A DNA stretch of 63,982 nt, filler included, from Perkinsus olseni (Eukaryota): the NCBI GenBank assembly GCA_013115125.1. It is 4 parts of 4 records of this genome, joined end to end, with 100 filler letters (N's around TTAATTAATTAA, not from the genome) between each part and the next. Parts side by side here need not be neighbours in the genome. Positions count along the whole stretch, not along the records: positions 17,609 to 35,070 come from JABANN010000644.1; 3 more parts are not named here. One strand, given 5' to 3'. This document shows positions 13,642-52,718 of the stretch, one piece after another. Within the stretch, counting starts at the first letter, position 1. Each line of letters opens with the position of its first letter. A program made the translations under genes and the position numbers. The notes below the pieces were generated by a model that was not told the origin of the DNA, did no database searches, and was given only the letters and a program-made list of their open reading frames with translations.

Positions 13642-14633
13642 CTAATGACTCACGCCACTTTGCTGAGCATTTTCCTTGCTATATACGAAAAACGGGTTGG
13701 GAGTATCTTCAGAAATGTCAGCCCAAGTATGGTTGACATCCCTGTGCCGGTCTTCATCCGCCCTCATGCAGACAAGCGCGTCCAGGAGCGTGGCGTCCGT
13801 AGGCAAGTAGTAGTACGACCGAGCATAATACGGCGCTGAACGCTCGAACTCGGGAATCTTCCCGTTCTCAACATCCTCGATGATTGCCGTGTAGGTCTTG
13901 AAAGCCTCTTCCTCCAAGTACCCGACAATCCTATGGCAGAACCGTGGAGAGATCGAGTACGCTGTAGCATAGAAGACAAAGAAAGCTCCCTGCGCCGCAG
14001 TGATCAGGCTACGCAGGACCCAACCATGAGAAATAAGGGATTGCGAAATCAGTAGGTGCATTCTCTCATCTTCGGCCTCTTCGATAAGGGTTGGTATCCA
14101 GCCGTGATCTCTGTCCATCCTACGCAACGACTTCAAATGGCGATTCAAAGCAGCCACCATGCCTGGTATGCCCGCAATCGTTTCAACGAAGATGAGGCGA
14201 TGGGCGTAGAGTTTATAACCGCGCTTGAGAAAGTCGTAGCCAGAGAAGAAATCGTAGCCAGAACGACAGAGCCACACTAAGGAGTAGGCCAACCTATCCT
14301 GAGCATTCTTCGGTTTCAAGTGTTCCGAAGTCAACGCACGAGCTTCCGGGATGTTCCACCGGGCATGGAAGATACTACCGATGCCGTTGGGGGAATCTGC
14401 GAAAGGAAAAATTGAACGACTTCAAGTTGCACACTGAATGACAACCCACCATTGACTTTAGTCGCTTCCCTGTACTCAACTTGGTCCTTAACGTCTTCGG
14501 TGAAGTCCACCGGCTGACTGGTGAATCTACGGAAATGTGGTACTGTGTTAGCACAGAGTGTTGCTGTAACGGAGGGAAGGGTAGAACGAAGCAGGGGCGT
14601 CAGAGAACGACTAACTGATAATGATGATAACAT
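13642..14633 (-). CDS. AOX: Alternative oxidase, mitochondrial (2 exons: 14450-14633, 13642-14396)
   Basis: Di-iron motifs VETIAGIPGM, EEAEDERMHL, GYLEEEAFKTY and RADEDRHRDVNH. Ser/Arg-rich N-terminal transit peptide. GT-AG intron 14397-14449 joins the exons in frame. Confidence 0.95.
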
Positions 14634-17508: not shown

Positions 17509-17607
17509 NNNNNNNNNNNNNNNNNNNNNNNNNNNNNNNNNNNNNNNNNNNNTTAATTAATTAANNNNNNNNNNNNNNNNNNNNNNNNNNNNNNNNNNNN
17601 NNNNNNN
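17509..17607. other. Artificial scaffold linker (N-TTAATTAATTAA-N)
   Basis: N runs around a six-frame-stop 12-mer; the same structure occurs three times in the window. Confidence 0.97.
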
Positions 17608-17680
17608 NGGGATTCGAACCCTCGCGGGCATAGCCCAACGGCTTAGCAGGCCGCCGCCTTAACCACTCGGCCAAAGTGTC
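17608..17680 (-). tRNA. tRNA-Ser(GCT), 3' end truncated by the gap
   Basis: GACACTTTGGCCGAGTGGTTAAGGCG GCGGC-CTGCTAA-GCCGT, a long variable arm, then GGTTCGAATCCC. Confidence 0.9.
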
Positions 17681-26774: not shown

Positions 26775-26918
26775 TAAGCAATTCTTGAGCTTGTTCGCTA
26801 CATGATACCACTCCATGCATGATTGTGGGGATCAGTGACTTGGCCGTTGGTAAAATTATTGCTCTGAGGGATTGCGTTTAGTGGTGGGTGATTGTTCCTT
26901 GGCTGCCCTTCTTACTTT

Positions 26919-28778
26919 ATGGCGGCGAGATCCACAGCAGCTCGGGTGTCCTCGGGTTTGCTTCACAGGCTGTTGACACCGACGGCTGAGCATGCCGCAT
27001 TGAGGGAGATGATGAGAGCCTTTGTTGCTAAGGAGGTTGGAAGGCCCTCATGCTGCGTCTGCCTGGCTCGATCCGAGGTCAGGTAGAGCCCCAGGCCCTG
27101 CATTATGACCGATTGGAGAAGTGCAATTTGTCGTTGCTCAAGAAACTGGGAGATCTCGGTGAGATGGCGTCCTGGTTTAGTTTACTGCGCTCTAGGATCC
27201 TGCCGACTGCGGAGTATTTGCTGGTAGGGCTGCACGGAATCTGCGTCGATGAGGAGTACGGAGGCAGCGGGATGGATGCAGTGGCGGCCGTTATTGCCCA
27301 TGAGGTAGTGGTAGAGGTGGTGCCAGGCTTCAGTGGTTGGACTTCTTCTTGCTTAGGAGCTCTCCTACTCTGACCCAGGCTTCTGCCTTAGTTATTTGGC
27401 ACATTCAATGCTGTTTGTTAATAACCTATTTCATAATGGCTCGGAGCAACAGAAAAGAAGGTATTGCTGTACTTGGCGGGATGGTTGTGAATCTTCCGTT
27501 GCTCGCTTCGTCGCAGGCTACTGCCTTCGGTTATCTCGGGCGAGCTCATTGGTAGCATGGGTATGAGTGAGCCGGGATGCGGGACGGATGTGTTGGCGAT
27601 GACTACTAAAGCTACGCCAGATGGGGATGGATGGAGGTCATCAATCGGATGGGCGGGAGTTCGATCCTCGGCGATGGCGCTCTTTATGTACAGGTTGGAT
27701 GGCGCTAAAATGTGGATCACCAACGGCTGTCTGGATACTGAAGAAGAGGGTGTACAGCTGGGTGACTGTTGCCTGGTGAGAGCCCCTGCCGTCAGGGAGG
27801 TGGACCCTCTTTTCTAGGTCTATGCCAAGGCCCCTGAAGGGCTCTCCCTCTTCCTTGTGGAGAAGCCCATGGAAGGTGGTCGCCGCTGCTTGATGGTATC
27901 GTAGGTGACTTTCGTTGTCTAGGGTTCAGGGTCGGGCAGAAGATTCGGGATAAGTGTGGCATGAGGGCGTCCAGTACTGCAGAGTTAATTTTTGATGACG
28001 TTAAAATACCTCGGGAAAATCTGGTTGGAGAGCTAGGTAGTTGCGTTTTGGTCAGTAGGCTCGCGTCCCGGTTGCTGACGATTAGGCAAAGGTGTGGTAC
28101 CAATGATGCGGAATTTAGAGATTGAAAGAGTTACCTTGGCAGCGATGAGCTTGGGTATAGCACGCAGGTAGTCACTTAAGGGAGAGGCCTAGCTGGCTTC
28201 AAGCGTTGCAGGTGCCTTGATGTGATGCTGAAGTACACGCAGGAACGGAAGTCGTTCGACAAGCCGCTGGCGGATTTCGGTCAGATTCAGCGCCACTTTG
28301 CGGAGTCCTACGCTCAATGGGCTGCTGCTCGGGCTTATGTGTGAGTCTTTTTCATCAGAGGTGTCCACTCGCGAGGGCGTTTGGTAGTTACTCGGTGGCT
28401 GCGCAGCTGAAGCTGGACAGTGCTAGTGGGTCGAGGACAGACTCTGATGGCGTGAAACTCTTCGCCACAACGATGGCGAAGGACGTAGCAGACCGAGCGA
28501 TGCAGGTAGTGGGATTTGTTTGCTCAGTGACAGGTAGAGTATCGGATGGTTTCAGTGCCTTGGTGGGTACGGCTATGTGGGAGAGTACGCGGTAGAGCGG
28601 TTGTGGCGTGATGCTAAGCTGCTGGAGATAGGCGGTGGGACGTTGGAGGCTCATCAGAAGAACATCACGAGAGATCTTGGCAAGGTGACAGACTCCACAT
28701 GTGACTCAGTCGTCCGAGGTGCTAGTGATTCAGGCTGGCGCTTGCTTGGGTGACTACGATCCAGTTTTCGAGGGATGA
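26919..28778 (+). CDS. IVD: Isovaleryl-CoA dehydrogenase-like acyl-CoA dehydrogenase, mitochondrial, many exons
   Basis: Exon peptides EEYGGSGMD, ELSYSDPGFCLSYLAHSMLFVNN, MGMSEPGCGTDV, GAKMWITNG, DKCGMRASSTAELIF, YTQERKSFDKPLADFGQIQ, GGYGYVGEYAVERLWRDAKLLEIGGGTLEAHQKNI. Confidence 0.9.
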
Positions 28779-28934
28779 AGGAGACTTTGGAACCTTGGTA
28801 ATTTTTCACTGCTGCGATGCATGTGACGGTGGTTAACTTGTTCTCGATTGGTTAGAAGTACCTTGTGGTTGTATTTTTCGATCCTCGGCCGAGAGGGTAG
28901 TGTTCGGTGGGCCAAAAAGAGGACTGAATAGAAA

Positions 28935-29016
28935 TGAGTGCTGTGGGGTTCGAACCAACGCGGATCGTGTCCATTGGATCTCAAGTCCAACCCCTTAACC
29001 ACTCGGGCAAACACTC
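28935..29016 (-). tRNA. Type II tRNA with TGA (Ser) anticodon on a tRNA-Leu-like body; possibly anticodon-shifted or a pseudogene
   Basis: GAGTGTT TGCCCGAGTGGTTAAGGGG TTGGA-CTTGAGA-TCCAA TGGACACGATCCGC GTTGG-TTCGAAC-CCCAC AGCACTC A. Full cloverleaf, discriminator A73, G37, and one T-stem mismatch. Confidence 0.88.
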
Positions 29017-29094
29017 CGGTGGCACGGTGGACATTCTTCAGGCTTACTTCTCTTCGGCGCATTTTGCCATCCATAGTTCTTGCATAATTTTCTC

Positions 29095-30093
29095 ATGACT
29101 GCTACTACTAAGTTATCTCCGACAGCCTCAAGCAGGGGCGACAGCGCGTCCGCTGCCACCACAACTTCTGACATCTCCGTGGAATCCTGCACTAAGGTCC
29201 AGAAGATCCCCGGTATCACTAGGAACAGACGCCACCTGTTGTTGAGCCGCGTCACTAGTCATGTTAACTCTGATTCCTTTTGGTTGGTCGAGGAAGAGAT
29301 TTCCAAAGACGCTCCCTATGCTGGTCTGCTCATCGTCCTCATACCGGGTAACCCCTCTGTGGTGTCTGTGTATCGTGAGTTCGCTATGATGTTGGTCACG
29401 AGGTTCGAAGGTGCTGAGATTTTGGTGGAAGGCAATGCGGGTCACTCCCAGCACAGCCAAAAACTATTCAACAGCCTACAGGAGCAAGTGGACCACCATG
29501 TGAGGTTGCTCTCCAGACGAATCGATCCCACCAAGCACGGAAAGGTCCTTCTACTCGGCCATTCTATCGGTGCTTTTATCCTACTCAATTTCATTGACCA
29601 ATTGCGATACAACTTTCCAACGGTGAAGTTCCAGGTGGGCCTGTTGGCCCCCACGATCTGTCGGTTCTCCAACTACAACACACTTCGCTATTACACTCGC
29701 CCTGCTCTCTCTGTCCTTGCTTGCTTCCGTCCGATTCTGAGCGGCATTCTTTCCATACTGCCATCCACTGTCCCCATGCGGGACGCGGGTGTAGAGGTCT
29801 GCCACGGTAAATTCTTGAGCAATATCGAAACGATGCTCTCTTGGGAGCTTCGGGACATGCCAGTCGAGCCGAATGTGGATTCCTTGGCGAAGCTAGAGAA
29901 ATCTTTCTGCATACACGTCACCATTGATAAGTACACAAACTCTGATCTACGAGCCCGAGTCCAGAAGAAGTTCATGGCGAGCATTCCTGAAGGACGTGGT
30001 CAAGTACGAACCATAGTTGCTAGACACAACTTTCTCGATGAAGAGGATTTGCCTAAGATGGTTGACGCTATAGCCTCTTGTGTCGAAGCATAG
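29095..30093 (+). CDS. Lipid-droplet-associated hydrolase (LDAH)-like alpha/beta hydrolase, intronless
   Basis: IVLIPGNPS..Y.EF, GHS, SLQEQVDH, nucleophile elbow LLGHSIGA, LLAPTI, and a late His (RHNF). Confidence 0.82.
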   Translation: MTATTKLSPTASSRGDSASAATTTSDISVESCTKVQKIPGITRNRRHLLLSRVTSHVNSDSFWLVEEEISKDAPYAGLLIVLIPGNPSVVSVYREFAMMLVTRFEGAEILVEGNAGHSQHSQKLFNSLQEQVDHHVRLLSRRIDPTKHGKVLLLGHSIGAFILLNFIDQLRYNFPTVKFQVGLLAPTICRFSNYNTLRYYTRPALSVLACFRPILSGILSILPSTVPMRDAGVEVCHGKFLSNIETMLSWELRDMPVEPNVDSLAKLEKSFCIHVTIDKYTNSDLRARVQKKFMASIPEGRGQVRTIVARHNFLDEEDLPKMVDAIASCVEA

Positions 30094-35070: not shown

Positions 35071-35170
35071 NNNNNNNNNNNNNNNNNNNNNNNNNNNNNN
35101 NNNNNNNNNNNNNNTTAATTAATTAANNNNNNNNNNNNNNNNNNNNNNNNNNNNNNNNNNNNNNNNNNNN
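35071..35170. other. Artificial scaffold linker
   Basis: N-TTAATTAATTAA-N. Confidence 0.97.
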
Positions 35171-52618: not shown

Positions 52619-52718
52619 NNNNNNNNNNNNNNNNNNNNNNNNNNNNNNNNNNNNNNNNNNNNTTAATTAATTAANNNNNNNNNNNNNNNNNNNNNNNNNN
52701 NNNNNNNNNNNNNNNNNN
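52619..52718. other. Artificial scaffold linker
   Basis: N-TTAATTAATTAA-N. Confidence 0.97.

Follow-up and report, generated by a model that had tools for sequence, protein, structure and literature searches.

A tRNA gene of Perkinsus olseni with a Leu(UAA)-type body and the serine anticodon UGA

Results

A leucine-type tRNA body carrying the anticodon UGA

Perkinsus is an alveolate and a parasite of molluscs (oysters, clams). We analysed a stretch of 63,982 nucleotides of DNA from Perkinsus olseni (NCBI GenBank assembly GCA_013115125.1), hereafter the window, in which a class II tRNA gene of 82 nt lies on the minus strand at 28935-29016 and combines a Leu(UAA)-type body with the anticodon UGA, as seen with ARAGORN, Rfam RF00005 and our own covariance models. 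From the bases that separate leucine from serine tRNAs, it is well supported that the body is that of a tRNA-Leu(UAA) in which A35 has been changed to G, and comparison with contigs of Perkinsus sequencing runs indicates that the gene is the lone variant of a multi-copy Leu(UAA) family. An initial annotation of the window had proposed the same origin, which is supported by A35 in all 120 related tRNA genes listed in metagenomes, by the identity marks and by a paralogue depth that mostly reads A35.

The gene was called by ARAGORN as tRNA-Ser with the anticodon tga at position 34, and matched the full Rfam RF00005 model (1-71) with a score of 50.9 bits (gathering threshold 29) and an E value of 5.8e-08. 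The acceptor stem, GAGUGUU/AGCACUC, is followed by U8 and G9, by a D arm CCC-GAGUGGUUAA-GGG, which gives the pair C10-G25, and by G26. The anticodon arm is UUGGA-CUUGAGA-UCCAA, with the anticodon U34 (28983), G35 (28982, C on the plus strand) and A36 (28981) and with G37 at 28980; A43 (28974), private among the aligned contigs, pairs with U27 (28990). In the variable region at 28960-28973 (U-GGA-CACGA-UCC-GC, 14 nt), the pair list gives a stem that stops at 3 bp because the A at 28965 stands opposite a C. The T arm is GUUGG-UUCGAAC-CCCAC, with U51 opposite C63, and the discriminator base is A73 (28935). All items observed in the initial annotation, namely the coordinates, the UGA anticodon, G37, A73, the variable arm, the T5 run, the T-stem mismatch and the base at 28982, were found as described there, and the strand, which it did not give, is added here.

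The elements expected around a tRNA gene were also found. An A-box-like stretch, UGCCCGAGUGG (28999-29009, tRNA positions 8-18), is identical to the consensus of the Leu(UAA) comparators described below, and a B-box-like stretch, GGUUCGAACCC (28946-28956, tRNA positions 52-62), is likewise identical to the comparator consensus; the box consensus used to recognise them is quoted in section 18 of PMC3333845. A T5 run at 28914-28918, which begins 16 nt downstream of A73, is from its sequence likely to be an RNA polymerase III terminator; for comparison, a T4 run lies about 13 nt downstream of the tRNA-Thr(AGU) of the window. The cloverleaf has 22 of 23 standard pairs and an energy of -21.5 kcal/mol, the single non-standard pair in the Rfam alignment being in the T stem. 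The minimum-energy fold (-24.9 kcal/mol, z -0.51) is not the cloverleaf, which is usual for an unmodified tRNA sequence and is uninformative. The marks of a pseudogene (broken stems, lost boxes, a lost terminator) were absent, with the exception of one variable-stem pair that is lost relative to the paralogues.

Comparison with tRNA genes of aquatic metagenomes

Metagenome contigs were searched for positions 13-42 of the gene, with positions 27 and 35 left free, which gave at least 120 matches; the counts that follow are from the matches listed and from the contigs that carry them. The anticodon was UAA (A35) in 120 of 120 matches, and position 27 was G in 114 and U, as in the UGA-anticodon gene, in 6. 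ARAGORN found 117 tRNA-Leu(taa) at these loci, together with 16 tRNA-Ser and 7 other tRNA-Leu on the same contigs, and trimming to clean ends left 136 leucine and serine genes with 57 distinct sequences. Among the 48 distinct Leu(UAA) sequences, A73 was present in 47 (the ends of the remaining one are doubtful), G37 in 48 and C10-G25 in 47; the three other leucine comparators all have A73. The six distinct serine comparators (3 AGA, 2 GCU, 1 UGA) have G73 and A37 and an arm of the form GGGC-UYU-GCCC in every case, and C10-G25 in none.

Set against these two groups, the UGA-anticodon gene has the A73, long variable arm, U8, A14 and G37 of a leucine tRNA and lacks the leucine anticodon (A35), and it shares the pair C10-G25 with the Leu(UAA) comparators; from the serine side it has the anticodon and lacks G73, A37 and the GGGC-type arm. 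Its acceptor pairs, G3-C70, U4-A69 and G5-C68, agree at one of three positions with the human leucine determinants (C3-G70, A4-U69 and G5-C68; PMC9976931), a set that may not be that of the Perkinsus leucyl-tRNA synthetase (LeuRS). Two covariance models, one for leucine and one for serine, were built from the metagenome comparator sets. The gene scored 83.0 bits with the leucine model and 74.4 bits with the serine model, so that the serine model is not the higher of the two, although the leucine margin is small; a higher serine score would, by the initial annotation, have refuted its reading. As controls, the truncated tRNA-Ser(GCU) of the window scored 43.6 (Leu) and 66.6 (Ser), and the tRNA-Thr 29.3 (Leu) with no serine score.

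A tRNA-Leu(UAA) body with the unusual C10-G25 pair is thus widespread among aquatic microbial eukaryotes. The same pattern of positions 13-42 gave 0 matches in a collection of viral contigs, which argues that the metagenome comparators do not belong to recognised viral tRNA clusters. On the marine and freshwater contigs concerned (L001-L120, for example L023, L029, L060 and L078), eukaryote-type tRNA genes are densely clustered, with as many as 5 within 830 bases, and the order Ser(AGA)-Thr(UGU)-Leu(UAA)-Phe(GAA)-Ser(GCU) recurs. For some genes (L011:11-96, L017:727-811 and L018:727-811) ARAGORN gave four-letter anticodons (gtag, taga); these look like tRNA genes with a short intron beside the anticodon.

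A multi-copy Leu(UAA) family in Perkinsus runs

Logan contigs of the runs X7, X8, X9 and X11 were aligned to the gene at 80% likeness. Many short contigs covered exactly 28935-29016 and had unrelated flanks. At 28982, C was replaced by T (A35) at a depth of 39.7 of 46.5 in X7, 654.1 of 808.1 in X8, 1103.9 of 1137 in X9 and 30.6 of 30.6 in X11. At 28974, T was replaced by G (C43) at the full depth in each run (46.5/46.5, 808.1/808.1, 1137/1137 and 13.3/13.3, in the same order), and at 28965, T was replaced by C (G in the tRNA) at 21.5/21.5, 217.7/230.2, 1111.5/1143.7 and 13.3/13.3, respectively. The G at 28965 gives the paralogues a variable stem of 4 bp, GGAC/GUCC. Among the differences listed, these three positions are the only ones within the gene that are well supported in more than one run; one further difference, at 28967, is listed for X11 only. 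Three bases are accordingly private to the UGA-anticodon gene: G35, A43 and, at 28965, an A that leaves the last pair of the variable stem open.

The depth within the gene in X9, a DNA-like run, is about 1100-1700 compared with about 35-45 in the unique flanks, which indicates that the A35 form exists in tens of copies. In one contig of X11, the end of one unit is followed, after 34 letters, by the start of the next, which points to tandemly arrayed 82-nt tRNA-Leu(UAA)-like units separated by short spacers. The UGA-anticodon copy stands by itself between two mRNA genes, not within an array. In X8, a depth of 154 of 808 keeps G35 (C at 28982); since the G35 contigs of this run read G at 28974, they are not the UGA-anticodon copy and may be Ser(NGA) tRNAs or another G35 paralogue.

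No A-to-C change at 28990 (position 27) or at 28957 (position 51) was among the changes listed for any aligned run, and from this absence it seems that U27 and the U51-C63 mismatch are common to the paralogues. The T-C mismatch in the T stem, noted in the initial annotation, would then be a trait of the family and not a sign of decay in this copy. The high-copy family may thus carry both U27 opposite C43 (28990/28974) and U51 opposite C63 (28957/28945), which would be odd for a working tRNA.

Assembly support, age and expression of the UGA-anticodon copy

We examined the assembly around the gene with 31-mers sampled at about one word per ten bases over 28400-29600. All 122 of 122 were present in the runs X1-X5, which come from two studies and possibly include the source sample, and the fraction in X6 was 0.97; G35 is therefore unlikely to be an assembly slip, and base 35, a position that the initial annotation had singled out, is G in the words of X1-X5.

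The flanks in X9 differ from the window by between 4 of 286 and 10 of 112 letters. One X9 contig with flank differences at 28918-28926 continues into the 3' part of the gene, which shows that the locus holds a tRNA in this diverged run too. The simplest reading of the X9 contigs is an orthologue with G35 and C43, in which case A43 would have arisen later in the lineage of the window. The X9 contigs with G35 are not tied to the locus, other tRNAs are a possible source of them, and the depth of the paralogues hides rare differences.

In X7, X8 and X11 the flanks 28892-28932 have zero depth, and of the spliced mRNA contigs on either side, those on one side stop near 28885 and those on the other begin near 29075. 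No contig with T at 28974 (A43) was found in these three runs, whose libraries are not tRNA libraries; since contigs drop rare variants, this lack does not show that the gene is silent.

Predicted charging of the transcript

In eukaryotes, the determinants of leucine identity are A73, three acceptor pairs, a large variable region and U8:A14, those of serine identity are G73 and a large variable region, and in human tRNA-Leu, A73 acts as an antideterminant against the seryl-tRNA synthetase (SerRS) (PMC9976931). For yeast tRNA-Leu(UAG), the same source gives G18, m1G37, pseudouridine 55 and A73 as strongly important in vivo, and A35 and G36 as essential in vitro and marginal in vivo (PMC9976931). 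With its A73, G37, long variable arm, U8 and A14, a transcript of the UGA-anticodon gene is predicted to be leucylated by LeuRS and rejected by SerRS. By these identity rules, such a transcript, if made, should be charged with leucine and should read UCA. A single extra base in the variable arm is reported (Himeno, in 1997) to be able to confer serine acceptance on yeast tRNA-Leu, and the altered variable stem of the gene consequently adds some doubt about charging with leucine.

Meaning of the UCA codon

In 8 long open reading frames (3262 codons), TCA is the rarest serine codon, at 29 of 316. Leucine codons ending in A are also rare (TTA 13 and CTA 21 of the 3262 codons); since A-ending codons are rare overall, a low frequency is not peculiar to UCA. 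The two TCA codons in the alternative oxidase (AOX) exon of the window both fall in variable columns of an alignment of 121 sequences and are uninformative as to the meaning of UCA. A TCA codon at 27405-27407 aligns with the serine of the AHS motif of human isovaleryl-CoA dehydrogenase (8sgr_A, 1ivh_A), and its place at this conserved residue indicates that UCA is at least mainly serine. These very few data agree with the standard code.

Neighbouring genes and other features of the window

Two plus-strand genes flank the UGA-anticodon gene and leave about 190 bases between them. The neighbour on one side, at 26900-28885 (+), is an isovaleryl-CoA-dehydrogenase-like gene interrupted by numerous introns, each about 50 nt long. 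Contigs of three runs that end near 28885 are spliced at two of these introns, 28503-28552 and 28683-28731 (GT..AG), and so confirm them. On the other side lies a lipid-droplet-hydrolase-like (LDAH-like) gene (Pfam LIDHydrolase) whose contigs begin at 29075 or 29076. A homologue search with the LDAH-like open reading frame gave 8 distant matches, 6 of them with plant names, and its atlas neighbours come from many phyla, so that this frame did not place the window taxonomically.

The alternative oxidase domain mentioned above is encoded in one exon at 13645-14421 (-) (Pfam AOX, E 1.3e-76). The domain shares 96% identity with a protein named for Perkinsus olseni, which places the window in the genus Perkinsus and not in a fungus, and 45-52% with AOX of oomycetes and other protists, the next named AOX matches being oomycetes at 45-47%.

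Three runs of N, at 17509-17608, 35071-35170 and 52619-52718, are each split by the linker TTAATTAATTAA; they mark joined contigs, and adjacency across them is therefore without meaning. A tRNA-Ser at about 17608 with A37, reported in the initial annotation, proved to be a tRNA-Ser(GCU) at 17599-17680 (-), truncated at the contig end so that its 3' acceptor strand and discriminator fall in the N run. It has A37, the arm GGGC-UAU-GCCC and the same 5' acceptor strand as the comparator Ser(GCU) genes, and the Perkinsus serine tRNAs accordingly look conventional. Its body is nearly identical to those of Ser(GCU) genes on marine metagenome contigs.

Discussion

A probable anticodon shift within a leucine tRNA family

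We favour, with moderate confidence, the explanation that the gene is a little-used or unused member of the Perkinsus tRNA-Leu(UAA) family that underwent an alloacceptor anticodon shift, in which the middle anticodon base changed from A to G and a leucine-type body thereby came to carry the serine anticodon UGA. Any transcript would accept leucine from LeuRS and not serine from SerRS, and UCA would be decoded as leucine. The copy would be made little or not at all, would be neutral or slightly harmful and short-lived, and would have no measurable effect on the proteome. The variable stem, weakened relative to the paralogues by the A at 28965, speaks for this explanation.

Several observations weigh against it. 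The leucine set was retrieved with positions 13-42 of the gene itself and is unbiased only at 27, at 35 and outside 13-42, and the margin of our leucine over our serine model is small (8.6 bits). Outside positions 13-42, the mean identity to Leu(UAA) is 0.73 in the 5' part and 0.70 in the 3' part, and the identity to serine tRNAs is hardly lower (0.58-0.67 and 0.62-0.70, respectively). The anticodon arm alone is one change away from the Leu(UAA) arm (A35G) and one from the Ser(NGA) arm (A37G). Overall similarity thus hardly separates leucine from serine, and the classification rests on the pair 10-25, positions 37 and 73 and the variable arm; the Perkinsus serine tRNA available for the comparison was the Ser(GCU) of the window, not the normal tRNA-Ser(UGA). 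As to disuse, the sequence gives no sign that the gene is dead: it has kept the box-like stretches and the T5 run, and all but one of the 23 cloverleaf pairs are standard. A43 pairs with U27, whereas the paralogue contigs all have C43 and no listed difference at position 27; this improvement of the anticodon stem is a hint of constraint, from a single event. Of the depth in the diverged run X9, about 33 of 1137 retains G35 and about 32 of 1144 has T at 28965. Both values are close to what a single copy would give, and the G35 copy may accordingly predate the separation of these strains.

Part of this evidence fits another explanation, which we consider possible if rather doubtful, that the gene is a working, weakly expressed mistranslator, charged with leucine and inserting it at a small share of UCA codons in a way that is tolerated or used by the cell, the role first proposed for the nev-tRNAs of nematodes. 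The intact box-like stretches and T run, the nearly perfect cloverleaf, the leucine marks A73 and G37, the restoration of the 27-43 pair relative to the paralogues and the possible retention of G35 in X9 all suit such a role, as does the place of UCA as the rarest serine codon (29/316), and nev-tRNAs are indeed charged with leucine and decode GGG as leucine in vitro (PMC3333845). Yet expression of the UGA-anticodon copy is putative, rarity is shared by A-ending codons generally, the variable stem is weaker than in the paralogues, the UCA at 27405-27407 sits at the conserved serine of the AHS motif, and even for the conserved nev-tRNAs no mistranslation of the proteome was detected in the work described in PMC4300185. 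A stronger form, in which the G35 copy would be old, conserved and expressed as a leucine-charged decoder and UCA would be ambiguous, mostly serine and sometimes leucine, we hold to be improbable; what leaves room for an ambiguous UCA is the repair of the anticodon stem by A43, a G35 that a diverged strain may have kept, and promoter-like and terminator-like elements that are intact.

The remaining explanations concern the nature of the family, the charging of the gene and the base itself. That the whole high-copy family is a tandem or dispersed tRNA-derived repeat, with UGA as meaningless drift, is unlikely in our judgement. The X9 depth of about 1100-1700 over flanks of about 35-45 and the head-to-tail joint with its 34-letter spacer in X11 would be expected of a repeat, no listed difference removes U51-C63 or pairs position 27 with C43, so that the consensus may hold two imperfect stems, and in one fungus most isotype-disagreeing UGA "tRNAs" are repeats (PMC8450103). 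The body of the family, however, is almost base for base that of a widely conserved tRNA-Leu(UAA), with A73 and G37, its contigs occur in RNA-like runs, and the cell requires some tRNA-Leu(UAA), for which no other candidate was seen in the data examined. Tandem tRNA gene arrays are, moreover, known in other protists. If the gene were instead the real tRNA-Ser(UGA) of the organism, serine-charged despite its leucine-like marks, the UGA anticodon, the stem UUGGA/UCCAA shared with the Ser(AGA) and Ser(UGA) comparators, the variable region of 14 nt, as in the serine comparators, and the 74.4 bits with the serine model would be explained; no second Ser(UGA) gene of Perkinsus was among the sequences compared, and the G35 depth in X8 (154/808), which is not from this copy, indicates that G35 relatives or serine tRNAs with a similar body exist. 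We nevertheless regard this as very unlikely, given A73 and G37 where all six serine comparators have G73 and A37, the lack of the GGGC-UAU-GCCC arm and of the A37 of the window's own Ser(GCU), the block that A73 imposes on human SerRS (PMC9976931), and a C10-G25 pair seen in Leu(UAA) only among the comparators. That an ordinary tRNA-Leu(UAA) gene was misread in sequencing or wrongly assembled is hardly credible: most contig depth at 28982 does read A35 and repeated tRNA genes are easily mis-assembled, but the 31-mers were all found in X1-X5 (122/122) and at 0.97 in X6, and some of them almost certainly span 28982. Two more private bases, at 28965 and 28974, accompany G35, and X9 keeps a depth of about 33 with G35.

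Relation to known systems

The kind of gene described here is already known from anticodon shifts, from nev-tRNAs and from the isotype-disagreement flag of tRNAscan-SE. Like the alloacceptor shifts of Rogers and Griffiths-Jones 2014 (PMC3923123), in which changes at position 35 are the commonest, the anticodon-shifted copy is a member of a multi-copy family that changed type by one anticodon substitution. Only one shift of that set involves a tRNA-Ser/SeC anticodon, and no Leu-to-Ser(UGA) shift and no alveolate case was found in the text consulted. The Perkinsus gene retained the identity marks A73 and G37 when its anticodon changed, which makes it a shift without re-tuning.

The nematode nev-tRNAs (Hamashima 2012, PMC3333845; Hamashima 2015, PMC4300185) likewise have a class II body derived from Leu(UAA) with a non-leucine anticodon, in their case for glycine or isoleucine (PMC3333845), and share with the Perkinsus gene intact box elements and a predicted insertion of leucine at the codon of another amino acid. 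They differ in being conserved across nematodes, with expression shown and leucylation obtained in vitro; they are about 64% identical to Leu(UAA), whereas the Perkinsus gene is some three bases from its family and is known in one genus, from sequence alone.

A conflict between body and anticodon that involves serine and leucine in the nuclear genome is also found in the CUG-clade yeasts, with their tRNA-Ser(CAG) and the competing tRNA-Leu(CAG) (PMC5951914, PMC6041473, PMC11342251), and in both cases it can make a sense codon ambiguous. The direction in the yeasts is the opposite one, since a tRNA with a serine body there reads a leucine codon, CUG, which is recoded throughout the genome; nothing suggests recoding of UCA in Perkinsus. 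Genes in which the anticodon and the best isotype model conflict are flagged by tRNAscan-SE 2.0 as "isotype prediction disagreement" (PMC8450103); the disagreement in the Perkinsus gene rests, by contrast, on two models of our own and on a margin of 8.6 bits. More than 95% of typical tRNAscan-SE predictions agree, so that a disagreeing minority is routine, and recoding, pseudogenes and repeats are given as its causes (PMC8450103). Among the matches listed in a search of the literature on Perkinsus tRNA genes, none dealt with nuclear leucine or serine tRNAs by title and abstract.

Annotation by the anticodon alone would name the UGA-anticodon gene a tRNA-Ser. If it is silent, the gene is another example of the steady mutational turnover within multi-copy tRNA families. 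Expression and leucylation would instead make it a naturally occurring cause of serine-to-leucine mistranslation in a parasite of molluscs and a rare opportunity to observe the first step in the change of a sense codon. Should UCA prove ambiguous, alveolates would gain their first example of such a codon, one that mirrors the ambiguity of CUG in yeasts.

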